64,000 nt of DNA from Candidatus Omnitrophota bacterium (GCA_023819145.1 JAMWCW010000001.1:66400-130399), one strand, 5' to 3'. Numbered from the stretch's first letter, positions 10,408 through 31,867 are shown. Notes: a model not told the origin generated them from the letters alone. Made by a program: numbers and translations.

Positions 10408-10461
10408 AGAGATAACTTATTTTATTTGGCATTTTTAAAACAAATAGGTTTCTGAGTATTT

Positions 10462-11253
10462 GTGCGATATTTAATAATAAGAAAAATAGTAATTATTTTA
10501 TTTTTTTTGGCTCTTTCTCAGACAATAGTATTTTCTCCGGTGTATGCTCGCAGAGTGAAGTGGTTTGGGGGTGAGTTATCACTTCTTCAAGAAAATAATT
10601 TTTTTGTAGGGCTGGAAGATAGTTTGAAAGAGTTTGTTATTAAATTCGAGGATGCCAGAGTAATAAAATCTATCTCTCAGCCAGAGCCATTAGAAGGGGA
10701 TGCCCCTTTTGATTCCGGAGAAAAGATAGTTACCTATAAAATTGAGGTTTTGACAGATAAAGGGGTTAGCAGTTTAGTAGTGAAATTGGTAAGTAGCAGA
10801 GAAGCAAAAAATTTCTTAACTGCTTCTTTAAGGGGTGTTTCTCCAGGTCCAGCGATTTTTGTAGAACAGGGGTGGGAGAACAGAAATGGCGTTAGCGAAG
10901 GTTATTTAATCTATCGGTTCTTTGAAGGAGTGAAGTTAAGCGAAATTTGTAATCAGGAACAGGCAATTGATATCCTAAAGAATAATCTTTGGATTATTGA
11001 AGAATTAGGTATTAAACTTGCGAATTTAAAGAAAGCAGGGGTAAAATATAGAGATTTTTTATATTATAATACGCTTATTGATTTAGAAAAGAGAGCTCTT
11101 GTGATTGTTGATTACGGTGATAGGCATTGCGCTGATCCCTTTATTCAGGTAAGAGATTGGTGGTTGCCTTTGATGTTCAATACTGAACCCGAGATATTAG
11201 AGAAAGTTATTAGTTTATTTGTAGAAGTTTATCAGAGAGAATTAAATAATTAA
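10462..11253 (+). CDS. protein-kinase-like fold protein (RIO/Kdo/APH-like) with the leader and RR motif
   Basis: YRDFLYYNTLI resembles the HRD..N catalytic loop and IVDYGD resembles DFG. The start is GTG with a weak RBS. The leader is IVIILFFLALSQTIVFSPVYARRVKW. Confidence 0.45.
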   Translation: MRYLIIRKIVIILFFLALSQTIVFSPVYARRVKWFGGELSLLQENNFFVGLEDSLKEFVIKFEDARVIKSISQPEPLEGDAPFDSGEKIVTYKIEVLTDKGVSSLVVKLVSSREAKNFLTASLRGVSPGPAIFVEQGWENRNGVSEGYLIYRFFEGVKLSEICNQEQAIDILKNNLWIIEELGIKLANLKKAGVKYRDFLYYNTLIDLEKRALVIVDYGDRHCADPFIQVRDWWLPLMFNTEPEILEKVISLFVEVYQRELNN

Positions 11254-11325
11254 TGAGATTTGCTACTCTTAAAGAAATTATCTTGCGGCGAGAAATGATC
11301 ACAATTTTAAGGGGGAGGAAGTGAT

Positions 11326-13551: not shown

Positions 13552-13608
13552 ATTTTTTTGTAATATTTATATCTCCCTTTGGTTATAGATAATAGGGGGG
13601 CGAGAAAG

Positions 13609-14769
13609 ATGAAGAAATACTTAAGAATTAGAGGGATATTTATTTTAGTAGTATTTGTAGTATTTTTATTTACGCTTTTGATTCCTGTAAAACATTCCTT
13701 GGCTTATCCCAGGAGTTATCCTTATTTAGTTTCTAATTCATTACCAGCTTTTTCCGCGCGAGGGTTTAATGAAGCGCTCTTAGCGCGAGTTTTGCGCGAG
13801 ATTATCATTATCTATAAATTCTTGGCTCAAATCGAAAGGGTTCTTAATGAAAGAGGAGAAAATGATTTTCCATCTTTAGGTAGGGTCATCGGAGACAGAC
13901 CTCAGGAGAGAGAAAATTCCCAAAATACTCCCCCCAAAAGAAGTAATTTAAGGGAAGAACCTGCGGGTAACCGTCATCTAGACCCAGAAAATCCTTCGGC
14001 AAAACTACCAGAAGGGTCATCTTCGTCACCTGCTGGTTCTCTAGGAAAGATAAAGATTGCGATTATTGATATTGACTCTAAGCACGCCGCAGAAGTAAAG
14101 GCGGTAATGGAAGAGACAATTCGGCGTAAGAATCCCGGGGCAAAAGTAGAAATTCGTACCATTATTCTTCCTGGCAAATGGCAAAGGGATGGTTCTAAAG
14201 CGGTGGCTACCAGTGATATTTTAGACGCTTTTGCAGAAGCCAAAGCTTGGGGCGCAAAGGTAATCAATATGAGTATTGGTGCACAAGGAGGTGTAGACGG
14301 TATAGTGCTTAGTGCCTTACGCGACCTTTCTGAAAGTGGCATTCTGGTAGTAGCGGCATCAGGTAATGAAGGTAGTTATGATGCTTGGGGGCAAGCTGGC
14401 CGATATGTCTTATCAGTGGGGGTAAGAGGTGCACCTTATTCCAATACCGCTGATTTATATGTCGATTGGGGAGAGCTTCCACCTGGATTAGAAGGCACAT
14501 CTTTTGCTGCTCCGATTATTGCTGCGGAAGCGGCTTTAGCCTGGTTAGAAAACCCTTCCCTTAACTTGGCAAGTTTGCCTTCTCAATTAGGTTCACGGGA
14601 CACAGTTTATGCCCGGAGTAATCCTCCGCAAAGAAGTTCGCAGGGGTTTCACACTTCGGCAATAGAGTTTGTAAGGCCACCTGTTGTTTTTTATACGCCG
14701 GTGGAAGAAATGCCTTTTTACGAACAGAGTTTTTATTCGCCTGTTGGCTGTTTTCCGTCTTTTTGGTAA
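13609..14769 (+). CDS. membrane-anchored S8 subtilisin-like serine peptidase
   Basis: Motifs are IAIIDID (Asp), SKHAAEV (putative His), VINMSIG, VVAASGNEGS (oxyanion Asn) and GTSFAAPIIAAE (Ser). The N-terminal helix is IFILVVFVVFLFTLLI. AYPRSY occupies the position where neighbouring genes have RR. Confidence 0.7.
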   Translation: MKKYLRIRGIFILVVFVVFLFTLLIPVKHSLAYPRSYPYLVSNSLPAFSARGFNEALLARVLREIIIIYKFLAQIERVLNERGENDFPSLGRVIGDRPQERENSQNTPPKRSNLREEPAGNRHLDPENPSAKLPEGSSSSPAGSLGKIKIAIIDIDSKHAAEVKAVMEETIRRKNPGAKVEIRTIILPGKWQRDGSKAVATSDILDAFAEAKAWGAKVINMSIGAQGGVDGIVLSALRDLSESGILVVAASGNEGSYDAWGQAGRYVLSVGVRGAPYSNTADLYVDWGELPPGLEGTSFAAPIIAAEAALAWLENPSLNLASLPSQLGSRDTVYARSNPPQRSSQGFHTSAIEFVRPPVVFYTPVEEMPFYEQSFYSPVGCFPSFW

Positions 14770-14876
14770 TTTTTGTTTGTTTTCTTCTAAATAAAGGGGA
14801 CACTTACTACCGACTCTTCATTGGTTGTAAGAAAGTAAAAGATATTAAACTTGAATTCCGAGGAGGTATTATATAA

Positions 14877-16064
14877 ATGAAAAATAGTAGAGGAAAGATT
14901 TATGTTATGTTTTTGGGTTTGTTATTTTTCTTTCTTAACTCATTATTATATTTAGACTTATCTGCGGGATGCTCTTTCCGGCGAATCAAAACTCAACCTG
15001 CCAAAGAATCTGCGCTGGTGCTTTTTTTCCACGAATTAGGTAGAGAAGATATTTTTTTAGTGGGAGGAAAAGGGGCAAATTTGGGAGAACTTTCGCATAT
15101 TGCCGGGATAAGCGTTCCCGAGGGGTTTGTAGTTACCACCACCGCTTTTCAAAAATTTTTAGATGCCAACCCTGGATTACAAGATAAAATTATCAGGATT
15201 ATAAATAGTATAGATTGGGATACCCCTTCCAGTATAAACTCTGCTGCGGAAAAGATAAAAGAAGCGGTTTTGCGTGCGAACATGCCGCGAGAGATTATTG
15301 AGATGATTAAAGCAGGTTATGGCCATTTAGAAGAGATCTCCGGAATAAAGGATGTGCCCTGTGCTGTAAGAAGTTCGGGAGTTGCTGAGGATTCTCCTAA
15401 CTTTTCTTGGGCAGGTCAATTCCGCACTGAATTAAATCAGAGGGGAATATATCAGGTTTTAGAGGCGGTTAAATTAATCTGGGCAGAGTTGTATAATCCT
15501 GATGCCCTTACCTATGGACATCAGAATGGTATCGACCCGCGCAAATTTTCTATGGGAGTGGTAATTCAGCGGATGATAAATTCAGAGAAATCAGGAGTGG
15601 CTTTTGGACTGGAGTCCGATACAGGTTTTCGTGCCAATCCCGGAGGAATGGAAGGAGTTTTTTATATTGAAGGGGTTTATGGTTTAGGTGAAGGGATGGT
15701 GCAAAATATTCAAGAACCTGATGGATTTTTGGTAGTAAAGATGCCTAATGGTGAATTTAAAATTATTGAACGCATTTTCGGTTCCAAAAGAGAACAGATA
15801 GTTTATCGGTCTGGAATGAGTGGGACAGAGAAAACTTCGGTTCCCGAAGAATGGCGTCAGAGATGGGTTTTTTCAGAAGCAGAGGTGTTAGAGATTGCTC
15901 GTGCAGTTTTTGCCTTAAATAGCCACTATAATCATCCCCAGGATGTAGAATTTGCCTGGGAAGGAGGAAAACTATACATATTACAATCACGCAATGAGAC
16001 AGTTCATGCAGATAAACCAGTAGATTTAATTGAATGGAGAAAGTTTAGAATTAACCTTAAATGA
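14877..16064 (+). CDS. PEP synthase (pyruvate, water dikinase) N-terminal ATP-grasp module as a separate polypeptide, with the leader and RR motif
   Basis: VGGKGANLGELS is the PPDK_N signature. The protein ends after the nucleotide-binding domain. The leader is VMFLGLLFFFLNSLLYLDLSAGCSFRRIKTQP. Confidence 0.75.
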   Translation: MKNSRGKIYVMFLGLLFFFLNSLLYLDLSAGCSFRRIKTQPAKESALVLFFHELGREDIFLVGGKGANLGELSHIAGISVPEGFVVTTTAFQKFLDANPGLQDKIIRIINSIDWDTPSSINSAAEKIKEAVLRANMPREIIEMIKAGYGHLEEISGIKDVPCAVRSSGVAEDSPNFSWAGQFRTELNQRGIYQVLEAVKLIWAELYNPDALTYGHQNGIDPRKFSMGVVIQRMINSEKSGVAFGLESDTGFRANPGGMEGVFYIEGVYGLGEGMVQNIQEPDGFLVVKMPNGEFKIIERIFGSKREQIVYRSGMSGTEKTSVPEEWRQRWVFSEAEVLEIARAVFALNSHYNHPQDVEFAWEGGKLYILQSRNETVHADKPVDLIEWRKFRINLK

Positions 16065-16083
16065 AAAAAGGGGGAGATAAATA

Positions 16084-18471
16084 ATGAAGTGGTTACATGT
16101 TAAAATTTTTTGGAGTATTGCCTTTTTAATTATTGCCAGCCTACTTTATGTTGATAATCTTTTTATGTTTTCTTCTTTAGATTTTATTACAAGAAGAGTA
16201 TTAACTCCTTCTTATACAGATTCTCCTTCGGTTGAGGTTCCCTCCGGTTCTCCTAAAATAATTGCCCGTGGAGAAGGGGTAGGTGCTAAAGGAGCGGGGG
16301 TAGGACGAGTGGTTATCATTGATGAAAATAGTTCCATCCCTATTCGTGAGCAGGCAATGCGTGTGCGCGAAGGAGATGTACTTGTTGCTTATCGCACCGA
16401 TCCTTCTTTGGTGGATGCCATGCGCCGAGCAGGTTTGGTGATTACTGAAATTGGAGGGAAAAATTCTCATGCTGCGATTGTCGCTAGAGAATTTAATTTA
16501 AATGCGGTTATTGGTGTGCCCAATGCTACGCGTATTTTTGCTCAAGGGCAGGTAGTTACTGTTGATGCTGAGCATGGAGTCATTTATGCTGGAGCTTTGC
16601 CGCTTGAAGAAGATAGTGTTTCCTATCGCGTGAGTGAACTTCCGTCTACGAGCCCTGTAAAGATAGGGATACTTTCCTTTGATACTGCTCGGGTGAGAGC
16701 GATGTTTCCTTTGGGTTTGTATTCTGATTTTTACGGTATAGGGCTGATGCGTGCAGAGTTTGCTTTACAAAATATTGGCATCCATCCGTTAGCAATATTG
16801 GATTTTGATAGAGGTACGCTTAGAGATGCAAGGCTACAAACAGAAATTACGCAAAAAATCAAAGGCTATGCGAGTGCGCGAGACTATTACATCTCAAAAC
16901 TTTCTTCTGCAATATTTTCCAATTCGCTTATTCTACATGAGGGGCAAAAGGTTATTTACCGCACCACTGATTTTAAAACCAACGAATATGAAGATATGTT
17001 AGGAGGGGATGTTTACGAGCATAAAGAGCCCAACCCCATGATGGGCAATCGCGGTTTACAGCGAATGATTAGTCCTGAATACCGGGAAGCATTTGATATG
17101 GAACTCGAAGCATTTTTACTTGCCTGGAAAGATAATCCGGGAAAGATTTCTATCATGGTTCCTATGGTACGCACTCCCCAAGACCTTCTGACTTTTCGTC
17201 AAATTCTTGAGGGAAAAATAAGGAGTATGGGGCTCTCGGGTATGCCTGAGGTAGTAATGATGTATGAATTGCCCGCGAATGTTTTTCAGATAGAGGAATT
17301 TATTCACGCCGGTATAAATGGTATTTCCATTGGTTCAAATGACCTGACACAATTTATTCTGGCAGTAGACAGGGACAGTGGTTTATTTAGAGAAGGAGGT
17401 AGAGAAGAATATGATGCCGTAAATAGAGCAGTATTGCGTGCTATCGGCATCGGTATAACTTCTTCTAAAGCCCGCGGTGTAAAAACAGGTATTTGTGGGC
17501 AAGCGCCATCAGACCATCCAGATGTTTATCCTGCAATTCTTACTGCTTTAGGAATAGATTCTATAAGTGTTACTCCCGATGTGTTTCATAAAGTGGTAGA
17601 AGCAGTAGCCCAAGCACAACAAAATCCTTCTTTTGGGATGAGATACCTTTCGGGTTTAGATTTATTTTTAGGCTACGATACCCAGACTAATCCCAAACGA
17701 GAATTAAAGAAGATAATTAGTTCTGATGATATACTTCGGAGTATTGGCATTCATCCTTTAGCCTTACTTGCCTTTGACCGGGGAAGTAGTTTATTGAGTG
17801 ATACGGCGATAAGTAGGCAGATTGTTTCTTTTGCCGGAGAAGAAACTGCAGAACGGGCTTACTTTGACCGTGTATATAGGGCGGTAAAGAATGCTTTACT
17901 TATGGATGGAGAGGTAGTTTATAGAACAGGAAGTTTGCTCAGTACCGATTATAAAACGCTTGTGGGAGGAGATATTTTTGAAAAAGAAGAAGCAAATCCC
18001 TTATTGGGTGCGTTTGGAATGTACCGCCTGCTCAGATATGGTTCAGAAGATGGCGCTTTGAGTATGCGTGATATTTTTAACATAGAGATGGATGCAGTTT
18101 TAAAAGCTGTGCGGGATACCGGTAAAGTTATTCATTTAGAGTTAGATATGGTGCGCACTTTTGGAGAATTACAGGAGGCAGTTTCTGTGATTAATGAGGC
18201 AATACGCCGTACAGGGATTTCTCCAGATAAGGTGAAAATTGGTCTAAATGTTTCTACTCCGGCAAATGTTCTGCTTATTTCTGATTTTATTAACCAAGGG
18301 AGATTAAGTTTTGTGAGTATCGACGAAAAAAGGTTAGCCTGTTATCTTTTGGGGGTGGATTCCTTGAGTATGGTTAGCCCCGAGGCTATTGAACGAGCCC
18401 TATATATACCTCGTCAACTGGTTTATACAGCATTAGCTCAAAAGGGAATCCCTTTAGTTAACTCCCCCTAA
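16084..18471 (+). CDS. PEP synthase phospho-His swivel domain, an intact PEP/pyruvate TIM barrel and a degenerate second barrel, with the leader and RR motif
   Basis: Motifs are GGKNSHAAIVAREFNLNAVIGV, GLMRAEF, NPMMGNRG, GSNDLTQ and CGQAPSD. Residues 545-795 repeat the barrel with lost motifs (NPLLGAFG, SIDEKRLAC). The leader ends LDFITRRVLTP. Confidence 0.8.
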   Translation: MKWLHVKIFWSIAFLIIASLLYVDNLFMFSSLDFITRRVLTPSYTDSPSVEVPSGSPKIIARGEGVGAKGAGVGRVVIIDENSSIPIREQAMRVREGDVLVAYRTDPSLVDAMRRAGLVITEIGGKNSHAAIVAREFNLNAVIGVPNATRIFAQGQVVTVDAEHGVIYAGALPLEEDSVSYRVSELPSTSPVKIGILSFDTARVRAMFPLGLYSDFYGIGLMRAEFALQNIGIHPLAILDFDRGTLRDARLQTEITQKIKGYASARDYYISKLSSAIFSNSLILHEGQKVIYRTTDFKTNEYEDMLGGDVYEHKEPNPMMGNRGLQRMISPEYREAFDMELEAFLLAWKDNPGKISIMVPMVRTPQDLLTFRQILEGKIRSMGLSGMPEVVMMYELPANVFQIEEFIHAGINGISIGSNDLTQFILAVDRDSGLFREGGREEYDAVNRAVLRAIGIGITSSKARGVKTGICGQAPSDHPDVYPAILTALGIDSISVTPDVFHKVVEAVAQAQQNPSFGMRYLSGLDLFLGYDTQTNPKRELKKIISSDDILRSIGIHPLALLAFDRGSSLLSDTAISRQIVSFAGEETAERAYFDRVYRAVKNALLMDGEVVYRTGSLLSTDYKTLVGGDIFEKEEANPLLGAFGMYRLLRYGSEDGALSMRDIFNIEMDAVLKAVRDTGKVIHLELDMVRTFGELQEAVSVINEAIRRTGISPDKVKIGLNVSTPANVLLISDFINQGRLSFVSIDEKRLACYLLGVDSLSMVSPEAIERALYIPRQLVYTALAQKGIPLVNSP

Positions 18472-18480
18472 CCGGGAAAA

Positions 18481-18580
18481 ACCGACCCCACCTCGTAGGT
18501 GTCCTTTTCACTGTATTGTAAGTTGTTTTTATATGGATACTTATGTGGGACGATTTTGGCCACCTACGAGGTGGGCACGG
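18481..18580. repeat. REP-like inverted-repeat pair 1
   Basis: ACCGACCCCACCTCGTAGGTGTCC at 18481-18504 faces GGCCACCTACGAGGTGGGCACGG at 18558-18580. The cores are exact reverse complements (CCACCTCGTAGGTG and CACCTACGAGGTGG). Confidence 0.75.
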
Positions 18581-18948
18581 TTAGTTTTGGTTTGGGTGTG
18601 GGTTGAGGAAAGTAGATTTTGGGTTGAGGAGTTAGATTAAGGAAAAATAAAAAACAGAATAGAATGTTTTGAGGTGTAAAGAAAGTTTACCCCCACAATG
18701 ATAGAAGATGTCAGTGTAAGTAGATATTTATCAGTAACTTATGGATAGATGCTCTTAGAATGTAATTTTAATTTACTTTCTTATTTGCCTTATGAAAAAA
18801 GGAGGAAGATAAATTTTCTTGTTTTATAGTCGGAAAAATCTGTCTTTGGTGATTATCTAATATTCTGGCATAAATTTTGCTTACTCTAGTAACAGAAAAA
18901 ATGTCAGAATTAAAAATTGAAATAAGAAAATTTTTACCATCTCTGCCA

Positions 18949-18977
18949 TTGACGATAAGAGAAAGATGTGATATAAT
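18949..18977 (+). promoter_or_regulatory. promoter TTGACG-N17-TATAAT upstream of the 1378-aa gene
   Basis: TTGACG at 18949-18954, a 17-nt spacer ending in tgtga, TATAAT at 18972-18977. Confidence 0.55.
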
Positions 18978-19001
18978 TTATATAGAGAATAATAATAAAT
19001 A

Positions 19002-22000
19002 ATGAATAAAATAATAAAAATGATAAATATGGAAAAGAAGAGAAAATATATTCTTATCTTTTTGGGACTATTTTTGCTTATTAGTGCCTATGTAGAGGCA
19101 AAGGTGCGTACTCAAGTAATTCGCAATAGCCCCGTCCCGGAAAGAAATGTGGGAATTATTCCTGAGGCGCGTTCGGTAGAAGACTGGGCACGGGTGAGAA
19201 CTCAGGTTATAAAAGAAACAGAAAGGAGAAACCGTCAAATAGAGACCAGCCAGAATCTTCCCGATAAAATGGAAGATAGCCGGAGAGAGACAGAAGAGGA
19301 ACGCCTCAAATCCGCTTACAAAATAGAAAAAGATGCTCGGGAGATGAAACAAAAAATAGAGCAGGCTTCTCCCAATGAGGTGGTAGGAGAAAATCCCGAT
19401 GGGACAAAATGGTATCAATACTCAGGAAGATTTGACATCTTCAAGAACTGGATAAAAAACAAACTCAAAGAACTTGGCCTCTTGGATAAATGGAAGGGTG
19501 AAAGTTTTGAGGAATTAGTTCAAAAATATGGTAAAACCAATTTTGACCTCACCTTCAACAAAAAATCTTGGTCTTATTTTGGTAAGCGCTCCTCGACTCT
19601 GCAAACCACAGAATTTCAATTTAGTTTAACCAATCCCGAAGATAATTTTGAAAAATATATTCAGACGCGCTCGCGTCAATTAATCTGGGATAGCGCCAAT
19701 AATCGCGAGGCAGAAATTGTGCAACATACTATAACCGATGAGATAGAATGGGCAGGTAAGTTCTATGGCACGCCGGGAAAAACCGAACAAGGAAGGCAGA
19801 TGCTTTCTTCTCGCCAGAGAACTTGGGATGAGACCAGGGGAACTTATTCTGAGGTAAACCAGAGAAATGTCTATGAAGGGAATTTCCATATGCCCATTAA
19901 GACCATCCGCAAGGTCTTTGAATCGGGCTACGATACTAAAGGCAATTACTATGAACGCCGATACGAGATGACCCGTGAGAATATTGAATGGGCGTGGGTT
20001 GTTTCAAGTGACCCAATTTCTGGCGGAAGTTATGAAACAAAGAGCTTTGACCAGACGATGATTGATTATTCCACGCCTGATAAAAAGACAATTTCCCACC
20101 ATGAGTTTACTTATACTGATGATGGAGTTCCGGAAAGTCAATTGATTGTTAGCCGAGAAGTTGGTTTAGGGCTAAATCATATTTCAGTAAGTTTAGAAAG
20201 ATATCTTGACTACTACAAAGATGGTTCTTTGCGCCAAGGACTGAGTCTTGATCTCACTGGTGATTTTCCTGACGTATATACCGCCGTAAAAGAAGGAAGA
20301 ACTTTACAGAATTTAATCAATAATAAAGAAACAAAGTCGCAAATCGAAGCACAGTTGGGACGCAGTTTAAACTTGAACAATCCTCAAGATTTAAAAATCT
20401 ATACCGCTTATCTGAGGGAAGGATTGGGGGAAACAGCAAGAAAAATCAGTTTGAGTTTTGCCGAGAAGAAACACAATGACAAAGCATTCCTTGCCTGGGA
20501 AAAAGAGACAGTTGCCATTGAAGGAAAAGATGAAAATGGGAGCCTGATTAGTTCTAGCAGTGAAATAGAAAAAACTTATACCCAGTTCTTACCCTTTGGT
20601 CAACCCACAGAGATTGAGCAACTGATAAGAAGCGAAGCCACACCAAATGTAGAAACAAAATTAAAGATTTCTTTAAAATACAACAAGTATTGTCAGGTAA
20701 CTGAACAGAGAACCGAAACGCGAGAAACAAGCCTTGATGGCAAACTTAATAAACACACGATAAGCATAAAAGATAAAATTGTTTACAATGGTTTAGGACA
20801 GGAAATTTCCTATCGTGAGCGAGAAGAAGAATATGATATAGATGGAAAGCGCATTGGCAATCGTGAAACTTTAGTAAAAAATATTACCTATAATGAAGAT
20901 GGCTTGCAGACCGGTTACGAGATGCAGAGCATAACCAGAGGAATTGATACTCATGATGGAAGTATTTTTGAGATAATTACTGAAACAAAAGTGCGCGATA
21001 TCCGATATAATGAATTGGATATGCGTATATCCTGGAAGGAGATAAGTATAGATTTAAGCAGAAGCCCGGGATTAATTAGTGAGAGAATGTATCAGGTAAA
21101 GGCAATAGATGAATTTGGAAGAATTACGGAGATAGATATAAAAGAACACACTTATGGCACTGCTTCCGATGGAACCTCTCTAAATACTGAACGCACCATT
21201 AACCGCAAGATAAAATACAACTCTTTAGGTCAGGAAGAAGAGGCAATTGAGGAGGTAATTGAGAAGGCAAAGACCACTATCTCAACCATTAAATATGCCT
21301 ATGACCAGTATGGGAGAATTTCGCGCGAAGAAAGAAAAGTGCATGTAACGGGGAAAGATGGAGATAGCGAATTGGACTATACTTATACTCTATTGCGCTA
21401 TGGATTTGAGTACAATGATGCAGGACTTCTACAGAGATATAAGGCTAAAATCCGGAATGAATCTACAGCCGATATAGAAATAACTCAGGAGGTAGAGATT
21501 GGCTATGACAGTCTGGGAAGAGTAGATTATCAGAAGACTCAAGTCTGGGAAGATACGCGAAGCGGAGATAAGGCCTTACACAAATACACACTTACCGTAA
21601 GGGAAAACATTACCTATAATGAATTAGGATTAGAGACAGCTTATACTGAAACAGAGGAGGAATTTGATGAAGATGGAAAACGCATTGGCAATCGTAAGGT
21701 TAAGGTAAGTAACATTACTTATAATGAAGATGGTTTGCAGACTGGTTATGACATGGCGGTAATAGTAGAAGGGACTGATACCCATGACGGAAGTAGTTTT
21801 GAAACCTTTACCGAGATTAAAGTGCGCGATATTCGTTACAACAATTTAGGCATCCGCATTAGTTGGAGAGAAACCACCATAGATACAAGTAGGAGTCCAG
21901 GATTAACTACCGAAAGAAAATACGCGGTTACAGAGATAGATAGGTTTGGTAGACCTATAGAGCTTATAATCAATGAGCATGCTTATGGCTCTGCTTCTGA

Positions 22001-23138
22001 CGGGACAAGTTTAGATACCTTCCGCAAGATTACACGCCAGATAACCTACAATTCTTTAGGTCAGGAAGAGGAAATTACTGAAACCGTAGAAGAAGGGGCA
22101 AAGAAAACCACTTCCAAGATTAAGTACGAATACGATGAATGTGGCAGGATTAAATATGAAGAAAGAAATATTCATGTAGAGGGCGAAGAAGAGGGGGTTG
22201 AGTTGGATTATATTTCTACAATAAGGCGTTATGGATTTAAATACAATGATGCAGGGCTTGTACAGGGCTATACGGCAGAAATCTGGAACGAGTCCAGTCC
22301 CGACTTAGAAATAAAGCAGGAGGTAGAATTTGGCTATGACAGTCTGGGAAGAATAGACTATCAACGAAGCGAAACCTGGGAAAAGGGAATAAGTAAAAAG
22401 CGCGATAAACATGGTGAACCTACAGGCGAGGAAGAAGAGGTTGAACGGCATACAATTTCTGAGAAATATGATATCCAATATAATGAATTGGGCTTGGAAA
22501 CTTATTATAAAACCGATAGAAAAGAATACGAGGATGGAGAGTTAATCCGCGATGTTACCGAGACCACTTCGGGAATAAGGTATGATAGTAAGGGAAGAAT
22601 GACTGAATACACCACCCATAGAACTGGTCAAGAGAGATTCCTTGAAGACAGTGGAGAATATGGGGAATTAAAGAGTGTAAATATTACTACCCATATTTAC
22701 AACATTACCTATGTTGATGGTCTGGATTTAAGAAAATCCTGGAGAGAAGAAATTTCTGGTTATATAGGGGGACAGGAATTTAAGGCAAGCACCCGTCAAT
22801 ATGAAATCTTAGAATTTGACCGCTTTGGAGAAGTGGTAGATATAAATATTGAAGGAGATGGAGTGGAGGAGGAAAATTCTGCTCCTCAGATTGATACGCG
22901 GGGAACAACTTCTGGCCCAGAAGTTAATCAGACCACCAGACCTTACTCTCCGACAGGTTCAATAAAGACAACAAGTGTTCGTCGGGGACCAGTAAGAGGT
23001 TTAGGAGTGCGCGGAAAAAGTAGAACTTATGCAAAAAGACCTTCCGGAATAAGTCTTTTGAGTAGTGAATCCAGTCAGCGTAAGAAATTAGAAGAGGAAG
23101 CAGAATATATTACGCCAGATAAAGAAGAAGAAAAATAG
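19002..23138 (+). CDS. secreted YD/Rhs-type repeat protein, 1378 aa
   Basis: The signal peptide is ILIFLGLFLLISAYVEA/KV. YD-like motifs recur (ITYNEDGLQTGY, IKYAYDQYGRI, IGYDSLGRVDY, ITYNELGLETAY). The true start may be ATG 19029. Confidence 0.7.
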   Translation: MNKIIKMINMEKKRKYILIFLGLFLLISAYVEAKVRTQVIRNSPVPERNVGIIPEARSVEDWARVRTQVIKETERRNRQIETSQNLPDKMEDSRRETEEERLKSAYKIEKDAREMKQKIEQASPNEVVGENPDGTKWYQYSGRFDIFKNWIKNKLKELGLLDKWKGESFEELVQKYGKTNFDLTFNKKSWSYFGKRSSTLQTTEFQFSLTNPEDNFEKYIQTRSRQLIWDSANNREAEIVQHTITDEIEWAGKFYGTPGKTEQGRQMLSSRQRTWDETRGTYSEVNQRNVYEGNFHMPIKTIRKVFESGYDTKGNYYERRYEMTRENIEWAWVVSSDPISGGSYETKSFDQTMIDYSTPDKKTISHHEFTYTDDGVPESQLIVSREVGLGLNHISVSLERYLDYYKDGSLRQGLSLDLTGDFPDVYTAVKEGRTLQNLINNKETKSQIEAQLGRSLNLNNPQDLKIYTAYLREGLGETARKISLSFAEKKHNDKAFLAWEKETVAIEGKDENGSLISSSSEIEKTYTQFLPFGQPTEIEQLIRSEATPNVETKLKISLKYNKYCQVTEQRTETRETSLDGKLNKHTISIKDKIVYNGLGQEISYREREEEYDIDGKRIGNRETLVKNITYNEDGLQTGYEMQSITRGIDTHDGSIFEIITETKVRDIRYNELDMRISWKEISIDLSRSPGLISERMYQVKAIDEFGRITEIDIKEHTYGTASDGTSLNTERTINRKIKYNSLGQEEEAIEEVIEKAKTTISTIKYAYDQYGRISREERKVHVTGKDGDSELDYTYTLLRYGFEYNDAGLLQRYKAKIRNESTADIEITQEVEIGYDSLGRVDYQKTQVWEDTRSGDKALHKYTLTVRENITYNELGLETAYTETEEEFDEDGKRIGNRKVKVSNITYNEDGLQTGYDMAVIVEGTDTHDGSSFETFTEIKVRDIRYNNLGIRISWRETTIDTSRSPGLTTERKYAVTEIDRFGRPIELIINEHAYGSASDGTSLDTFRKITRQITYNSLGQEEEITETVEEGAKKTTSKIKYEYDECGRIKYEERNIHVEGEEEGVELDYISTIRRYGFKYNDAGLVQGYTAEIWNESSPDLEIKQEVEFGYDSLGRIDYQRSETWEKGISKKRDKHGEPTGEEEEVERHTISEKYDIQYNELGLETYYKTDRKEYEDGELIRDVTETTSGIRYDSKGRMTEYTTHRTGQERFLEDSGEYGELKSVNITTHIYNITYVDGLDLRKSWREEISGYIGGQEFKASTRQYEILEFDRFGEVVDINIEGDGVEEENSAPQIDTRGTTSGPEVNQTTRPYSPTGSIKTTSVRRGPVRGLGVRGKSRTYAKRPSGISLLSSESSQRKKLEEEAEYITPDKEEEK
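20778..22472 (+). repeat. in-frame tandem duplication inside the YD protein gene: an 831-nt unit (20778-21608), a second unit of 864 nt (21609-22472), and a decayed third copy at about 22473-22860
   Basis: gatggaaaRcgcattggcaatcgt and ataatgaagatggYttgcagacYggttaYgaSatg recur at 20841 and 21672, an offset of 831 nt. The protein units align over about 277 aa. Confidence 0.8.
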
Positions 23139-23395
23139 AAAAAAAATTACGGAGGATAACAAAAATCTTTCATTTTAAGTAATTGTAATTAAATAGTTTA
23201 AAAATTAATTTTATAAGCATGTAACTTAAGTTTACAATTATTAAACATTTTAGGGAGGAGAAAAAAGAGAGATAAAAAATGTAAATTTAATTATATTAAT
23301 TACTTATAAATGACGATGATTTTAGAGGAAAATTGGCATTAAACTTGCTTATATAAAGATGAAAAATTAAAATTTTGAAAAAAGGAGGGTAAAAA

Positions 23396-26300
23396 ATGAA
23401 AAAGACAAGATTTTTACTAAACCGGGCCGGGGGAATTTTAATACTTTTCTTAATTTTGGCTTTTACAAAGCCGGGAGAGGGATTATTTTTTACTGGTGAT
23501 GACCCTACTCAATACCATATGAGTACTGGATGCGGGATGTATGGTAATGGTTGTAATGCTTTTGGGGATCAAGAACGGCAAACTCCAGGCTTACTGAGGC
23601 AAATGAGTTCGTCACCGGCGTCTATTCAATTTAAGGACGGAATTCCAGTGACAGGGGATTCAGTGAGGTGGTCTCTTTTCGATCTGGATAATGATGGTAA
23701 TGTTGATTGTTATATAGATGAAAGTGGAAATAGATATTTAAAAACTATAACCTCAGATGGCATAATAACAGGTTATATTTTAGCAAAAAATCTTGAAAAT
23801 GGAGATTTAGATGTTCAAGTATATGGATATACTCAAACTTCAGGTTATTTTCCTATAATTCCTATAGAACCACTTGATCACACAGAACAGAATACTCAGG
23901 TAGTTGAAACACAATACCGTTTAGTGGCACATTTTAAAGTAGACCAAGCCGCTGGGCTTAATTCTTTAATAAAAGCTATTTTAGATGATACTCGCCTGCA
24001 ATCATTCCTTCAAAAATTTGATCCCAATATGAATAGTATGCTTAATGTGGGTGGCCAACAACTGAAGTTAGTTGAAAGTTTTACATATAACGATACAGAC
24101 TCTGAATGGAATAAAAATGACCAGGAGGAAAAATATTACTCCTCTATAAATGGATATTTAAAAAGGGAGGTAATTTCTGGAAAGGAATATTATTATGTCT
24201 ATAATTCCGACTATACCTTAGCTGCGCGCTATACAAAAGATACTAGTGGTGATATCACAAGCTTGACATTTATTACTCCTTCTGGAGGAGCTTTTGAGCG
24301 AGGTAAGTTAATTAGTGGGACTGAATATGAATTATCCGGGGCTTCCTTGGGGTATCTGAAGGGCTTATCGGAACTCTCGCTAAATATAAATAATATAGGT
24401 TCTTTAATGGAAAAATCTGCAATAATAGCGGGAACCTCATGGCTTAAGTTAGGCGAAAACCACTATTTTCAGCTTAAAAAAGGAACAATTGAGCAGGTAG
24501 TAACTGTAACTGTAGCAGACGATGGAAAATCTTCTTCTTTAACTTTGCAAAGGCTCAAATTGGAAGATGATAAATTGGTAGTAGTAAATGGTCAGTCAAT
24601 AACTGTTTCCAACGCGCTTTTAACTGGCAAGTTGCCAAGCGGATACTTAGATTCCTCAATTACTTCCCCTAAAGTCTTAGACCTTATTTTAAAAGGAGCC
24701 TCCATAGATTACACTCATCAGAGAATTTATTTTGATTATACAGGAAAGACTTATGCTTATGATGTTACTGGAGAAGGCTTACAGTATTATTATGTTTATT
24801 ATATGGGCGGAGGAAATACATTACCATTATTACAAATTTATGGTCCTGATACTAATATAACAACTGAAAACCCTGATTTAACTTTAACTGTGCCACAAGA
24901 ATTAAAAATCACTAATTTTACTTTTAATGTTAAAGGAACTAGCGCTACATTATCTTTCCAAGCAGATGGTAAAGAATACACATATAACCTTCCTACTAGT
25001 AAAAATGGTTCTTTTACCTTGAGTATTGATCCCCAAGCCACTGGTGCAGGGGTAATTGCACCTACTATTAAAATACTACCACCCGCATTAAGCGAGGAGC
25101 AAAAAAGATGGATTGCTAGTATTTTGGGTCTAGAAGACGATCCGGGTGGTCGAACAGCCGTACAACAATTGGATAATTTATTGGGAGATTCCCAAAATTA
25201 TTTTGTAACTGGTAATTATTTTGGGATTCAATCAGGAGAGAGTATTTTTATATTTAATACTTCCTCACTAAGTGCAGGTAGTAGATATCTTAAATTTGAT
25301 GGTAAAAATCTAATAATTAATGAGGGTACTACAACTATAACTATAGGAGATTTCGCTAAAGTTTTAAAGAGTCTAGGATTCTCTGCTTGGCTGGATGCTT
25401 TTAAATCTATGGAGGAAGATTCTCTGAGGACCCTTTTTGGACTAAATCCGAGCAATTCAGCCAATTTCACACTTGCCTTTGAGAAGATTATTACTGAGGC
25501 GCAGAAAGAGTTTTATAATTTCTCGTTTGAGAAAGACACAAGTGGTAGTAATTATTCGCCTAGGGGATATGCTAAGGCTATGTTGGATAATTCCCGATCT
25601 GTTGTTGTTGTTGAGTTTTATATTAGTGATGGGGATAGTTTCACCAAAGTTTTAGGATTTGATAGACCTACATTACTGCAAATATTAGATAGATCAGAAA
25701 CCTTTGAAGGCTTGTATGAAAAAGCTAAGGGATTTGTCAGGAATATTAGTTATGTAAAAAGGTTAGATGGAACTTATGTTTGGGTATGTAGTATAGGTAA
25801 TAAGTTTGTTCAATTTTATTCTATTGGAGGAGGAAGTGAATGGTGGGCATTGGCTGTTGATGCTACTGGTGATGTTACTGTATATGATAGCGGATGGGAG
25901 ATAAAATATACAATTGCTAAAATAGAGTTAGAATCGTCACCATCACCAAGCGTTGATTTAGTAAAAAGCCTAATTTTTGATGAGCAAACATTGCATCTTC
26001 TTCGGTTAAGTATAGAGCAAAGAGGAGACGGTGGTGTAACAGGTGTAACAATCCAAAGAAACAAAATAGAAGTGTGGGAACTGAAAAAAGCTTCGGCGAA
26101 TAGTAATGCGTTAAAGAGGATAGAAAAATTTACTTTGCTTGGAGAGGAATCTGTGGTAGCAGGAAGGGCGACCCCACTTGATCCAGAGCCAGTTATTGAA
26201 TTCGGCAGTAGAAAAATAAAGGAAATCCAATTTACCAATTTTGCGGGGATGGTAACCTTCGCTCGAGGAATTAGTTTTAAGACTCAGGGTGATAAAAGTT

Positions 26301-29300
26301 ATCTGATTTTAGGAGGAAAAATTTATGAGCTTTCTTTAGCAGAAGATGGATCAATCTTTACAATTAGCCAAACTCCTATTATTACGATTGAGCAACAAAC
26401 TTGGGAAGCAATAAGAACACTTATTGCTTACGAGCGGACAAATACTGGAAGTGTAACTGGCCCGAGTGCAATTGGCTGGGCTGATATTAGTATAGTAATA
26501 GAAAAAGAGGACAAAGTGTACTTTGAGGTGCCAGTGAAATCAATTGATGAGGGAAGATATGTATTGAGATTTGATAGTAAGGGACAATTAATTAAGAGAG
26601 ATGGTGCAGTATTGAGTTTTACTCCCACAGATTCAGATGAATCCCAAAAAGCAGAAAGCTTTAAAACATTTTTGCAAAATAATGTAGGCAATCTTCCTTT
26701 ATCTGCAGCAGGCAAAGCCTATGAGAGATTTTGTTCACAGTTGGCAATTGCTGGTGTGGCTAAAGTAGATTGGGAGATATTTCTTCGTAGCTGGAATGAA
26801 GGGGCAAAAACTCTTGAAGGCTTTAGTGACCCCGGATGGGGTGGGGGACTTAGTAGGAGCGAACTTATCGCGGCATTGGAGCTTAGTGATGAGCAGAAAC
26901 AACAGCAGTTGCGTAGAATTGAGGCTACAGATATAAATGGGTTTAATAAATATCTTTATATTGATGACAAGGGAAATATAGTTTATGTAGAAGAACTACC
27001 TGATCCCTCGAAAGGAAAATATAAAGGATATTTATTAAGGTATCAGTGGAATGATTCTGCTAATCCTCCGGAAGCGAATATTTCTGGAGTATTGGTAGGA
27101 GCTATGCAGCGTTCAACTTCACAAAATGTTTTATCACAAAATGTTTTATATGGAATAGTAGCAGAGGTTGATAATGGTGGGGGTTATGTAAAATTGAATG
27201 ATAAAGGATTTGAATTAAATTTAAATATTATATTTAAAGGTAATAACAAGGGGTATGAGAATCTTTTTGATTTTGAAACATACAAAATCGAAATCAAGGT
27301 TAGTAGAGTGGATAATACATTGACGCAGGTAGAAACAACGAATTGGGCTAATTCTAATGCGCAAAGATGGTATACGAGCTCTACCATTACTACAGTAGTA
27401 GGGCTACTGGAGGATGGGAAATTTGAAAAAAAGCGAGAAGAAAGGGTATTAAAAAATAATGAGGGGGAGCAAGAAACAATCACTTTTCCTGAATTTGATG
27501 GAAAAGGCAACCCCACTAAAAAACAGGTGCATTCTTTGAGGAAAGTCGATATTGAGGGTTGGGAATGGAGAGAGGATAATTATACAGAGACAGGAACTCT
27601 TAACAGTAATCAACAATGGGTGAGGAAAGGTTATGAACCTAATACTCAAAGGACAATTAAGCTAAGTAGAGGAAATGGGGATTATCTACAGCAGGAGTAC
27701 TCTATAGATGGAAATGGAAAAGCAATCAGATGTGTTATTGAGGAAAAAAGAGGTTCGGTAACTGCCAAAGTAGAAGAAGAAGTAGTAGGTGAAGGGGATT
27801 TATTATTCTTAGGAGAGAATACACAACTTACCTTGAATATTAATGGAGATAGGATAGATCCCAAAACAGGACAAACGGTAAGTGTAAGTGGCAATAATGT
27901 AGTAAGGTCTGTTTATGTATTTAAGGACGAAGAGGTGGCAGCACTTAAACAGCAGGGCTTAACCATAAGGGCTGGTATTCCTTATATCCTTGATAAATAT
28001 GAAGATGGTTCGTTTAGAATATATACCGCATTTGTAGAACAAACATATCTTGATGCACAAGGAAAACCTAAAGCGTATTATGTGGCTGGAGAATATGTAG
28101 GAACCCTTGGTTCAAAAAAAGCCAGTGACGGTGCCAGTGGCGGAGGCGGTGGAGGAGGTGGAGGAGGTGGAGGAGGTGGACCGGCAGGAAGTGACAAAAT
28201 TCCTCCTTCACAAATAGCTAATCAGGATACAGGAGAGATTGTTGGTGGTATGGAAGGGCAATTAGATGGTTTTGTGAAAAGAAGCTATCCTGAGAGAGTA
28301 GAGGAATTAGCTCATACTTATCGGGCAATGGGTCCGGGAATGAAGGAGAGAGCACTTTCTATAAACGATAGAGATAGTGCCAGAATATATCTATTGGGGA
28401 GATTTCTTTCCAGAGATAAAATTAAACAAGTTCTTTCGGTTCTTAAAAATAAGAATCTTTCTATTGAGGAAAAACGCGCTTTACTTAAGAAACTGGGGCT
28501 TTCGGATAAATTGCTTGACTTACTCCTTAATGGTGATGAAGAAGCATTAATTAAAGAAGCTCAAAAAATGCTCCTTAAGGATTTCGGGCTTTCTGATGAG
28601 GAGATTGAAGAATTCTTCAAGAGCAGTGATAAAAAAGGATATTTGCAGAAGAAAGGACTTTCTGATGAACGCATTGAGGCGGTAATGGAGATAACAGATT
28701 TAGAGAAGGCTCAAGAGGCAATCCTTAATCAGGAGGCAGTTTTGGAAGAGTTGCTCAGTGAGGAAGAGAAAGCACTTATGGAGGAGCTTTTTGCTTTGTT
28801 AGAGGAATATACCGGATTTATTAGTGATGAAGAGTATGCGGAATTAAGGGAGATTTTGGTAGATTTGGGGCTTTCTGAGGAGACCATAGATGATTTAATA
28901 GGTAAAAATGCGGATGAGTTTATGAATAGTCAGTTGCGGAATTGGGCAATGATGGATGAGAAAAATATTCTTGAATTGGCAAGGATGCTTTTCTTTGATG
29001 AAGACTTAAAGTTAGATAAATGGACTGCGGAGTTTATTGTAAAAGGTGATGAGTTTATGGTAAATGAGCTCTTAAGTAAAATTAGACAAGCAGTAAAAGA
29101 GTATCTTGAAGAGTATTGGGGTAAAGAGGTCAGTGAAGAAGAAGTTAAAGGTTTGGATGAGGCGACTAGAGAGAAAATTGCCGATGCTTTACTGCAAGCG
29201 ATAGGTAGAGGAGGACTTACGCTGGAAAATGCTTCTAAAAAAGTAAAGGAAATTCTTGCAGAGATTATCCCTTTGAAGGAAGCGAAAGAGGAGAAGAGCC

Positions 29301-29443
29301 CTATTCAGCCAGCACCTTCTCCGGAACCGTTACAGCCACAATCTCTTGCTGCGGTAAGTATTCAGGGTAACTGGAGGAGCAAAAATAATGATGATGATAT
29401 TCCGCGGTTGTTAAGAGAAAAAAATGAACTCAGAAGCAGATAG
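23396..29443 (+). CDS. giant secreted protein, 2015 aa: signal peptide, about 1580 aa of beta-rich region, a Gly14 hinge, then an acidic helical C-terminal domain with GLSD/E repeats
   Basis: The RBS aaggaggg precedes ATG 23396. The N-terminus is GGILILFLILAFT. I recognise no catalytic motif. Confidence 0.7.
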   Translation: MKKTRFLLNRAGGILILFLILAFTKPGEGLFFTGDDPTQYHMSTGCGMYGNGCNAFGDQERQTPGLLRQMSSSPASIQFKDGIPVTGDSVRWSLFDLDNDGNVDCYIDESGNRYLKTITSDGIITGYILAKNLENGDLDVQVYGYTQTSGYFPIIPIEPLDHTEQNTQVVETQYRLVAHFKVDQAAGLNSLIKAILDDTRLQSFLQKFDPNMNSMLNVGGQQLKLVESFTYNDTDSEWNKNDQEEKYYSSINGYLKREVISGKEYYYVYNSDYTLAARYTKDTSGDITSLTFITPSGGAFERGKLISGTEYELSGASLGYLKGLSELSLNINNIGSLMEKSAIIAGTSWLKLGENHYFQLKKGTIEQVVTVTVADDGKSSSLTLQRLKLEDDKLVVVNGQSITVSNALLTGKLPSGYLDSSITSPKVLDLILKGASIDYTHQRIYFDYTGKTYAYDVTGEGLQYYYVYYMGGGNTLPLLQIYGPDTNITTENPDLTLTVPQELKITNFTFNVKGTSATLSFQADGKEYTYNLPTSKNGSFTLSIDPQATGAGVIAPTIKILPPALSEEQKRWIASILGLEDDPGGRTAVQQLDNLLGDSQNYFVTGNYFGIQSGESIFIFNTSSLSAGSRYLKFDGKNLIINEGTTTITIGDFAKVLKSLGFSAWLDAFKSMEEDSLRTLFGLNPSNSANFTLAFEKIITEAQKEFYNFSFEKDTSGSNYSPRGYAKAMLDNSRSVVVVEFYISDGDSFTKVLGFDRPTLLQILDRSETFEGLYEKAKGFVRNISYVKRLDGTYVWVCSIGNKFVQFYSIGGGSEWWALAVDATGDVTVYDSGWEIKYTIAKIELESSPSPSVDLVKSLIFDEQTLHLLRLSIEQRGDGGVTGVTIQRNKIEVWELKKASANSNALKRIEKFTLLGEESVVAGRATPLDPEPVIEFGSRKIKEIQFTNFAGMVTFARGISFKTQGDKSYLILGGKIYELSLAEDGSIFTISQTPIITIEQQTWEAIRTLIAYERTNTGSVTGPSAIGWADISIVIEKEDKVYFEVPVKSIDEGRYVLRFDSKGQLIKRDGAVLSFTPTDSDESQKAESFKTFLQNNVGNLPLSAAGKAYERFCSQLAIAGVAKVDWEIFLRSWNEGAKTLEGFSDPGWGGGLSRSELIAALELSDEQKQQQLRRIEATDINGFNKYLYIDDKGNIVYVEELPDPSKGKYKGYLLRYQWNDSANPPEANISGVLVGAMQRSTSQNVLSQNVLYGIVAEVDNGGGYVKLNDKGFELNLNIIFKGNNKGYENLFDFETYKIEIKVSRVDNTLTQVETTNWANSNAQRWYTSSTITTVVGLLEDGKFEKKREERVLKNNEGEQETITFPEFDGKGNPTKKQVHSLRKVDIEGWEWREDNYTETGTLNSNQQWVRKGYEPNTQRTIKLSRGNGDYLQQEYSIDGNGKAIRCVIEEKRGSVTAKVEEEVVGEGDLLFLGENTQLTLNINGDRIDPKTGQTVSVSGNNVVRSVYVFKDEEVAALKQQGLTIRAGIPYILDKYEDGSFRIYTAFVEQTYLDAQGKPKAYYVAGEYVGTLGSKKASDGASGGGGGGGGGGGGGGPAGSDKIPPSQIANQDTGEIVGGMEGQLDGFVKRSYPERVEELAHTYRAMGPGMKERALSINDRDSARIYLLGRFLSRDKIKQVLSVLKNKNLSIEEKRALLKKLGLSDKLLDLLLNGDEEALIKEAQKMLLKDFGLSDEEIEEFFKSSDKKGYLQKKGLSDERIEAVMEITDLEKAQEAILNQEAVLEELLSEEEKALMEELFALLEEYTGFISDEEYAELREILVDLGLSEETIDDLIGKNADEFMNSQLRNWAMMDEKNILELARMLFFDEDLKLDKWTAEFIVKGDEFMVNELLSKIRQAVKEYLEEYWGKEVSEEEVKGLDEATREKIADALLQAIGRGGLTLENASKKVKEILAEIIPLKEAKEEKSPIQPAPSPEPLQPQSLAAVSIQGNWRSKNNDDDIPRLLREKNELRSR
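28139..28180 (+). repeat. coding GGN microsatellite encoding Gly14, with (ggtggagga) repeated about three times
   Basis: The sequence reads ggc gga ggc ggt gga gga ggt gga gga ggt gga gga ggt gga. Confidence 0.9.
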
Positions 29444-29474: not shown

Positions 29475-29500
29475 GCCCACCGCGTAGGTGGGCATTTTTT
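29475..29500 (+). terminator. intrinsic terminator after the 2015-aa gene, formed by the left REP of pair 2
   Basis: The stem pairs GCCCACC (29475-29481) with GGTGGGC (29487-29493). The loop is GCGTA, followed by A and TTTTTT. Confidence 0.6.
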
Positions 29501-29501
29501 C

Positions 29502-29530
29502 TTGACATAAGCTTATAAATTTGCTATATT
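29502..29530 (+). promoter_or_regulatory. promoter TTGACA-N17-TATATT for the transposase gene, located between the two REPs of pair 2
   Basis: TTGACA at 29502-29507 and TATATT at 29525-29530. Confidence 0.55.
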
Positions 29531-29622
29531 TATTATAGAGTTTAAGGGACACCTACGCGGTGGGATAGGTTTTATTAATTATAGGAGAGTATAAAGAAGT
29601 TAACGAGAGTTAAGGAGAAAAA

Positions 29623-30276
29623 ATGAGAAAGAATTTTCTGGCAGTAGGAGAAATTTATCACGTGTTGAATAAAAGTATTGCGGGTTTTCAGATTTTTAAC
29701 GATGAAGATGAATATCAGCGAATGGCTGGGCTTTTTGCCTATTATCAAAAAGAGAATCCTCCAGTTAAGTTCTCTAAGTATTTAAATTCCAATAAAAAAG
29801 GTTCTGAGGGGGAGAATACAGGAAATAAATTAGTGGAAATTATCGCCTATTGTCTTATGCCTACCCATCTTCATCTCTTATTGAGACAGATGAAAGAAGA
29901 AGGGATTTCTCTTTTTATGGGAAATGTTTTAAATAGCTACACCCGCTATTTTAATACCCGACATAAGCGCAAAGGACCTCTCTGGGAGGGTAGATTTAAA
30001 AGAATTCAAGTAAAAACCGAGGAAAATTTATTGCACCTTACCCGCTATATCCATCTTAATCCGGTTACAGCGTATCTGGTGAACAAGCCCGAGGATTGGC
30101 TTTTTTCTTCTTATCGAGAGTATTTAGGTCAGGTTGATGGTAAGGAGAAAATTTGCAATTTTGAAGATTCTTTAGAGATAGGCCCTGACTATAAAGAATT
30201 TGTGGAAGATAGAATTTCTTACCAGAGAGAACTTGCTCAGATTAAAGATTTAATAGTTGAAAACCTCTCCACCTAA
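29623..30276 (+). CDS. REP-associated tyrosine transposase (RayT, IS200/IS605 TnpA-like Y1 HUH enzyme)
   Basis: The HUH motif is in CLMPTHLHLLLRQ. The Tyr helix is LLHLTRYIHLNPV. At 217 aa the size is typical. Confidence 0.8.
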   Translation: MRKNFLAVGEIYHVLNKSIAGFQIFNDEDEYQRMAGLFAYYQKENPPVKFSKYLNSNKKGSEGENTGNKLVEIIAYCLMPTHLHLLLRQMKEEGISLFMGNVLNSYTRYFNTRHKRKGPLWEGRFKRIQVKTEENLLHLTRYIHLNPVTAYLVNKPEDWLFSSYREYLGQVDGKEKICNFEDSLEIGPDYKEFVEDRISYQRELAQIKDLIVENLST

Positions 30277-31838: not shown

Positions 31839-31867
31839 TTGACAAAAGTTCTTAATTATGATAAGGT
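31839..31867 (+). promoter_or_regulatory. possible promoter TTGACA-N17-TAAGGT with TGa extended -10, for the efflux operon
   Basis: TTGACA at 31839-31844. The track's TTG start codon is the -35 element. Confidence 0.3.

Follow-up and report, generated by a model that had tools for sequence, protein, structure and literature searches.

A stretch of DNA of 64,000 nucleotides (nt) from an uncultured Omnitrophota bacterium (here called the window) contains, at positions 19002 to 23138 of the plus strand, a gene encoding a protein of 1378 amino acids (aa). The open reading frame (ORF) lies exactly where the initial annotation had placed it. Its product is identical to NC818_00260, a hypothetical protein of a Candidatus Omnitrophica metagenome-assembled genome (MAG) at NCBI, and the exact protein is present on a single contig. 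The protein has the layout of a Sec-exported protein, and most of its length is predicted to form an array of beta-hairpins with local structure like that of the YD-repeat shells of Rhs and Tc proteins. The features of the gene are listed below; confidence of the structure models is given as the predicted local distance difference test (pLDDT).

18949..18977, plus strand: match to a sigma-70-like promoter, TTGACG-17 nt-TATAAT with an extended -10 TG (TTGACG-17-TGaTATAAT), 11/12 matches
19002..23138, plus strand: coding sequence of the YD-like beta-hairpin protein, 1378 aa
19002..19100, plus strand: Sec-type signal peptide, aa 1-33, with a basic n-region, the hydrophobic core YILIFLGLFLLISAY and V-E-A|K
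19101..19370, plus strand: N-terminal charged region, aa 34-123, with a disordered stretch and long helices at aa 59-83 and at aa 98-121, most of it modelled with a pLDDT below 60
19101..19121, plus strand: first motif copy, KVRTQVI, aa 34-40, in a low-confidence, probably disordered segment
19191..19211, plus strand: second motif copy, RVRTQVI, aa 64-70, near the N-terminal end of the first predicted helix (aa 59-83)
19374..20561, plus strand: family-specific N-terminal beta-hairpin array, aa 125-520, pLDDT 75-94
20274-20426, plus strand: three-helix insert in the AlphaFold model, aa 425-475
20562..20777, plus strand: incomplete copy of a repeat unit, equivalent to its C-terminal portion (aa 521-592), with a z of about 8 in comparison with unit 1 and a match to positions 165-276 of the unit hidden Markov model (HMM)
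20778..21608, plus strand: repeat unit 1, 277 aa (aa 593-869), 16 beta-strands
21609..22472, plus strand: repeat unit 2, 288 aa (aa 870-1157), 61% aa and 67% nt identity to unit 1
22473..22871, plus strand: third unit, incomplete (aa 1158-1290), matching unit positions 1 to ~124 with about 30% identity and a z of about 11
22872..23135, plus strand: C-terminal tail, 88 aa, predicted disordered, rich in S/T/R/G/P/K, with an acidic end

A signal peptidase site (YVEA/K) had been predicted near the N-terminus, and a basic stretch, a hydrophobic core of 15 residues and the VEA|K sequence are all seen. Cleavage would fall after VEA, before K34, and this layout is common to 7/7 homologs. The alignment of homologs begins at Met10, and therefore the true start may be at 19029. 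The TTGACG promoter noted earlier holds as a sequence match and is the top site within 18400-23500, a region where the total count of promoter-like sites is not above that in shuffles. An Rfam scan of the locus gave chance-level matches only.

Predicted structure and relation to YD shells

AlphaFold2 modelled aa 560-1300 as 41 consecutive long beta-strands with a pLDDT of 90.8 and a predicted template modelling (pTM) score of 0.82. Nearly all turns of the hairpin array are of the [Y/F]-[N/D]-x-x-G type, and each unit has 16 strands. A model of aa 34-602 (pLDDT 76.6) has a disordered start that includes the first motif copy, followed by two helices and, from about residue 125, the hairpin array. 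The pLDDT falls below 50 at the start of the C-terminal tail. Both faces of the sheet are hydrophilic; 32% of the residues are charged, and even the more hydrophobic face is 27% charged.

When the model was compared with the PDB using Foldseek, ranks 1-9 were all YD shells (E 8e-16 to 3.5e-6), including an Rhs core (E 8e-16), teneurin-2, a Tc holotoxin and YenB/RHS2. Global superposition on YD shells was poor, with template modelling (TM) scores of 0.10-0.16. In the structure prediction that had been suggested as a search for a beta-encapsulation shell, the hairpin array is uninterrupted and YD shells lead the Foldseek ranking, but the overall shape superposes poorly. As modelled, the protein is a very divergent YD-type hairpin sheet in its local structure; how it packs as a whole is different from, or not matchable to, the packing of known cocoons.

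Sequence comparison gives a fainter form of the same relationship. A profile made from 43 units aligned with the YD-repeat region of Escherichia coli RhsA in hhalign with a score of 38-40 and a probability of 29-37%, whereas 11 controls (reversed and shuffled RhsA, BtuB, TamA, TamB and two unrelated window proteins among them) scored 11-21 with a probability of at most 0.6%. The 7-sequence family alignment gave only a local YxYDxxGR match to RhsA (probability 1.4%). A Pfam scan of the whole protein yielded no RHS_repeat match and nothing significant. When unit 2 alone was compared with RHS_repeat (PF05593) it reached 11 bits (E 0.62), under the cut-off of 22 bits; the positive control, E. coli RhsA, was recognized by the same profile with an E value of 1.5e-68 and 14 repeats. 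Scans of the 1378-aa protein against NCBIfam, PHROGs and PADLOC found nothing significant, and a search of PDB sequences with the family profile found no match. The initial annotation had called the gene product a YD/Rhs-like secreted protein and proposed HMM searches with RHS_repeat and YD profiles. The description is right in kind, through Foldseek and the 43-unit profile, but the likeness is remote and the standard profiles fail to detect it, an outcome that had been named beforehand as able to refute the description.

The annotation had also reported the absence of an Rhs core motif (PxxxxDPxGL) and of a C-terminal toxin, and this is borne out. The cleavage motif of the Rhs core is DP(I/L)GXXGGX5YX8D(P/S)XG(L/W) (PMC11461821). 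Neither PxxxxDPxG[LW] nor DPxG[LW] occurs in the 1378-aa protein, and the Rhs core motif is absent from all 7 family members and from all 27 distant relatives. A Pfam scan of the protein detected no RHS core domain (PF03527) and no toxin domain. Nor is there a toxin and immunity pair, as the C-terminus is an 88-aa low-complexity tail and the next gene encodes a secreted protein of 2015 aa. Pfam domains for type VI secretion system (T6SS) proteins VgrG and PAAR, or for TcA, were absent from the 17 neighbouring ORFs scanned and from the called genes of the related loci L001, L003, L005 and L006.

The protein shares with Rhs and YD shells (8qja/8qjb, Tse15, TcB-TcC and YenB/RHS2) a long antiparallel hairpin sheet with Y-[D/N]-x-x-G turns, hydrophilic faces and overall size. 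It differs from them in having strands about twice as long, a 277-aa super-repeat of 16 strands and a Sec signal peptide, and in lacking the N-terminal plug or clade domain, the aspartyl-protease cleavage motif, the toxin and the immunity gene. Teneurins use a YD-type sheet as a structural or adhesive extracellular module, and mouse teneurin-2 (9g2f) was matched by Foldseek with an E value of 3e-11; however, teneurins, which are type II membrane proteins of eukaryotes, also contain EGF, NHL and Tox-GHH parts, none of which are found in the 1378-aa protein, and the TM score was 0.16. WapA of Bacillus subtilis is a wall-associated YD-repeat protein that, like the 1378-aa protein, is exported by a Sec signal peptide rather than by a T6SS. 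In WapA the RHS repeats are canonical and are accompanied by an Rhs core, a tRNase toxin at the C-terminus and an immunity protein, all of which are missing here.

Repeat units and family distribution

The boundaries given previously for the two units, 20778-21608 and 21609-22472, are exact, and the decayed third copy described with them corresponds to the partial unit at aa 1158-1290. The proposed age of the duplication is another matter. Long identical DNA runs had been cited as a sign of a recent tandem duplication with possible copy-number variation, but the longest exact run shared by units 1 and 2 has 23 nt, and just four further runs are as long as 14-15 nt. In nucleotide sequence the two units are 75% identical when gapped columns of the nucleotide alignment are left out and 67% identical when codon-aligned; amino acid identity is 61% and identity at third codon positions is about 50%. 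Each of the two is 79% identical to the matching unit of the ortholog P0002, a protein that is 72% identical to that of the window, while paralogous comparisons involving the window protein's units give 61-65%. Since orthologous units are more alike than paralogous ones, the tandem duplication is ancient and predates the split of the two lineages. In P0002 (L001 10001-14203), the protein's own two units are 70% identical in amino acids and 62% at third positions, compared with 61% and 50% in the window protein, a possible sign that the P0002 lineage has undergone some gene conversion or has diverged more slowly.

The number of units varies among family members. Two full units are present in the window protein, P0002 and P0035, one full and one truncated unit in P0003, P0004 and P0005, and one unit in P0006 and P0007. 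Copy-number variation finds no support as a recent phenomenon but is seen as a difference of 1 to 2 full units among distant family members, a pattern that reads as modular evolution in deep time and is not evidence of present-day variation. The basic, Ser/Arg-rich tail that had been pointed out corresponds to the 88-aa C-terminal segment, whose composition is kept across homologs while its sequence is weakly conserved; P0006 has no tail.

The family is small. It consists of seven proteins at 90% clustering, and its profile gave 29 matches among 1.84 billion representatives. In GTDB, 3/185,579 species genomes carry the family, all of them Omnitrophota, and every full-length member for which a source gives the organism is likewise from Omnitrophota. 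More distant relatives match the repeat region only, and profile positions 1-420 match the family alone. These distant relatives are uncharacterized proteins of up to 7965 aa; among ten that were looked up, three carried an organism name and all three were Elusimicrobiota MAGs. No informative Pfam domain was present in the nine distant relatives scanned.

Neighbouring genes and likely role

Two genes near that of the YD-like protein are conserved neighbours.

13579..14769, plus strand: S8 subtilase gene, separated from the YD-like gene by two PpsA-like genes
23396..29443, plus strand: gene for a secreted protein of 2015 aa with a predicted signal peptide, downstream of the YD-like gene

In each of the loci L001, L005 and L006, the subtilase gene is the immediate upstream neighbour of the homolog. 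The PpsA-like genes (PPDK_N; PEP-utilizers plus PEP-utilizers_C) at 14877-18471 lie between the subtilase and the YD-like gene in the window genome only; because the subtilase is directly adjacent in the other three loci, the arrangement in the window looks like an insertion or rearrangement. The subtilases of the window and L001 are 55% identical and keep the Ser motif GTSFAAP. The Pfam profile match of the subtilase spans about 90 residues, and the protein lacks the textbook DTG and HGT motifs and keeps IIDID..KHA, NMSIG and GTSFAAP; it may be an unusual but active subtilase. A gene for a large secreted protein is located downstream in the window, L001, L003 and L005 and is not found in L006. 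In the one alignable pair, the 2015-aa protein and its L001 neighbour, the N-terminal 83 aa and the C-terminal ~430 aa are conserved, the latter being helical, E/K-rich and 59-62% identical. The 2015-aa protein has no Pfam, PHROGs or PADLOC match. It contains a run of 15 glycines, and its matches in the PDB were to the linkers of single-chain variable fragments (scFv) and were set aside as an artefact of this poly-Gly run. The counterpart of the 2015-aa protein differs in length between samples (1310 aa in L001 and 1338 aa in L002).

Given that the best structural matches are toxin cocoons and that the gene for the giant secreted protein is a conserved neighbour, the protein could be a true Rhs- or Tc-type toxin cocoon that holds its own basic 88-aa tail or a partner protein as cargo, with the giant neighbour being TcA-like. 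A further point in favour is that Omnitrophota are thought to be host-dependent or predatory (PMC10066038; bioRxiv 10.1101/2023.11.21.568195). Such a cocoon is nevertheless quite improbable, because neither the cleavage motif nor PF03527 nor a toxin domain occurs in the 7 family members or the 27 distant relatives, the tail is of low complexity, weakly conserved and missing in P0006, the gene is not followed by a small immunity-like gene, T6SS or Tc cargo does not typically carry a Sec signal peptide, and the giant downstream protein is without a Pfam or PDB match. Another explanation is that the sheet never closes and forms an open, extended beta-ribbon acting as a fibrous adhesin, a surface-layer-like sheet or a long rigid spacer on the cell surface. 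The very low TM scores to closed cocoons, strands of about twice the classical YD length, the hydrophilic character of both faces, as in single-layer sheets, and the presence of repeat relatives in giant proteins of up to 7965 aa, which are typical of adhesins, all speak for an open ribbon, which we regard as unlikely on the whole.

An outer-membrane beta-barrel, whether a single very large one of the porin or usher-like kind or a protein of several barrels, is very improbable for a protein with 32% charged residues, compared with 20-22% in BtuB, TamA and TamB, and with only 2.3% of alternate-face windows cleanly hydrophobic. Compared with outer-membrane barrels such as TonB-dependent receptors, porins and Omp85, the protein has no hydrophobic belt, a very high charge and a strand count roughly three times as great. 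It also lacks a C-terminal aromatic beta-signal, ending instead in a disordered acidic tail (...ITPDKEEEK); the Pfam profile OmpA_membrane stayed under its cut-off on the 1378-aa protein, and Foldseek places barrels far below YD shells. An AsmA/TamB-like "beta-taco" spanning the periplasm, anchored by an uncleaved N-terminal helix and transferring lipid to the outer membrane, would account for the hydrophobic N-terminal helix and for the continuous beta-sheet of over 1100 residues that comes after it, and the length of 1378 aa is similar to that of TamB and YhdP. This explanation is scarcely credible: no Pfam match to AsmA/TamB was obtained, the hhalign probability against TamB was 0.1%, and cleanly hydrophobic faces make up 14.1% of windows in TamB. 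Both the barrel and the TamB-like structure were rejected on composition and controls.

The explanation that we favour, with somewhat better than even confidence, is that the protein is a soluble, Sec-exported, toxin-less YD-type sheet that serves as a structural shell or scaffold and that has grown by ancient duplication. The protein would be exported through Sec, and its mature part, from residue ~125 to ~1290, would form one continuous antiparallel sheet of about 65 strands of 10-20 residues each, joined by [Y/F]-[N/D]-x-x-G turns, soluble and strongly curved. The sheet was enlarged by ancient tandem duplication of a 277-aa, 16-strand module, of which family members have 1 to 2 full copies in addition to partial ones, and the length of the sheet would be set by the number of modules. 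Each module may add roughly one turn to a spiralling, barrel-curved sheet. Because the protein lacks the Rhs core autoprotease motif and a toxin domain, its most likely function is that of a structural shell, a scaffold or an adhesin located on the cell or outside it, and not that of a toxin container; it may be processed by, or act as a partner of, the neighbouring subtilase and giant protein. The proximity of the three genes suggests that their products may cooperate in the envelope of these Omnitrophota or at the surface by which they contact a host. The computations support the fold class and the layout of the secretion signal; we infer the cleavage of the signal peptide, the spiral form of the sheet as a whole and its structural or adhesive role.

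Several points weigh against the toxin-less YD-type sheet. The 1378-aa protein is recognized by no curated profile (RHS_repeat E 0.62, none in NCBIfam and none among PDB sequences), and the AlphaFold model was built on an alignment of 7 sequences. The ~1500-aa middle of the 2015-aa protein is unrelated to its L001 neighbour, so that synteny is only partly supported by sequence. The function proposed for the YD-like protein would follow from its modelled fold and its neighbours alone.

YD shells are familiar from Rhs and Tc proteins, where they contain toxins, and from animal teneurins, where they form the scaffold. A Sec-exported version with wide strands and no toxin would widen the known range of the YD fold and would suggest that module number may tune shell size. 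Omnitrophota are ultra-small and probably host-dependent, and to our knowledge almost none of their surface proteins have been characterized. The YD-like protein, the subtilase and the giant neighbour are concrete candidates for studies of how Omnitrophota contact their hosts, although the immediate impact is modest, as this is a single hypothetical protein family. A bolder proposal, which we consider improbable, is that the protein represents an architecturally undescribed class of YD-type sheet, with wide strands and 16-strand modules that each form one turn of a tube, the number of modules determining how long the tube is, and working with the subtilase and the giant protein as an extracellular contact or attack apparatus of host-dependent Omnitrophota, with a related repeat in giant Elusimicrobiota proteins. 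If true, it would be a Tc-toxin-like or teneurin-like system made of components that no curated profile recognizes.

The KVRTQVI motif, RR-tagged enzymes and a hairpin element

The initial annotation drew attention to a doubled KVRTQVI motif after the signal peptide and related it to the leader motif of nearby enzymes, referred to here as the RR tag. The doubling is well founded. The two copies are identical at 6/7 positions, a value reached by 7/2000 shuffles of the N-terminal region, and the doubled heptapeptide is non-random; the DNA of the two copies is identical at 15/27 positions. The motif is recognizable in the four closest homologs (e.g., GVSTQVV/EIRTQVK and RVRTQIT/KARIQIK) and was not found in P0005, P0006 and P0007.

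The RR tag itself is real: in eleven window proteins a hydrophobic helix at the N-terminus is followed, at a distance of 3-15 residues, by an RR doublet, and further examples are found in related loci. No RR doublet is present just after the hydrophobic core in the 1378-aa protein or in any of the 7 homologs. The sole RR in the first 90 residues of the 1378-aa protein, at aa 75-76, lies 41 residues downstream and has no conserved counterpart among the homologs. The KVRTQVI motif directly abuts the hydrophobic core (VEA|KV). A position-specific matrix built from 17 tags gave true sites 18-31 bits and the best non-tag site 11, while the two KVRTQVI sites scored -14.6 and -1.3 bits (ranks 3383 and 101 of 18,890) and ranked 346 and 88 when the downstream columns alone were used. 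The conserved core also differs, being RR[IV]K in the RR tag and TQ[VI] in the KVRTQVI motif. A relationship to the RR tag was rejected on the spacing after the core and the matrix scores, and the resemblance fails in the family-wide comparison with the leader family, which had been named beforehand as able to refute it, the motif being absent from 3/7 homologs.

The enzymes that carry the tag form a cluster of their own. Nearly every gene upstream of the YD-like gene, in window 287-18471, encodes a normally cytoplasmic enzyme with an extra N-terminal hydrophobic helix, and in each enzyme an RR[IV]K-like tag follows 3-15 residues after the helix. The set comprises a methyltransferase, phosphoglycerate kinase (PGK), glyceraldehyde-3-phosphate dehydrogenase (GAPDH), class II fructose-bisphosphate (FBP) aldolase, phosphofructokinase (PFK), an aminotransferase and both halves (PPDK_N and PEP-utilizer) of a split PpsA; the asparaginase encoded at 60162-61886 fits the same pattern. 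Two further Omnitrophota genomes show the tag and the gene order again (L001 4427-8477 and L006 1401-8299), and the cluster ends with the S8 subtilase. The four subtilase orthologs (window, L001, L005 and L006) have an N-terminal hydrophobic helix without the RR tag. Membrane anchoring of a glycolytic metabolon and processing at a dibasic site by the subtilase are both worth testing as explanations for the tag. The cluster of tagged glycolytic enzymes looks more unusual than the YD-like gene.

Downstream of the large secreted-protein gene, window 31839-42295 contains a gene for a TolC-like OEP protein with an AMIN domain, a gene for an HlyD-family adaptor and two proteins of about 1100 aa, presumed to be resistance-nodulation-division (RND) pumps. 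The region appears to be an ordinary efflux operon and is syntenic with L001.

A hairpin element of about 90-110 nt with 15-bp arms (CCCACCTCGTAGGTG / CACCTACGAGGTGGG) is present in three copies in the vicinity of these genes, two of which flank a transposase gene.

18486-18576: hairpin element, first copy
29475-29565: hairpin element, second copy
29623-30276: IS200-like Y1 transposase gene, flanked by two hairpin copies and syntenic in L001
30283-30373: hairpin element, third copy

The element folds as RNA with -53 kcal/mol (z -5.1), and 6 arm matches were found compared with 0.06 expected. It looks like a repetitive extragenic palindrome (REP) or REP doublet (REPIN) accompanied by a REP-associated tyrosine transposase (RAYT), and one copy has a compensatory change in its arms.

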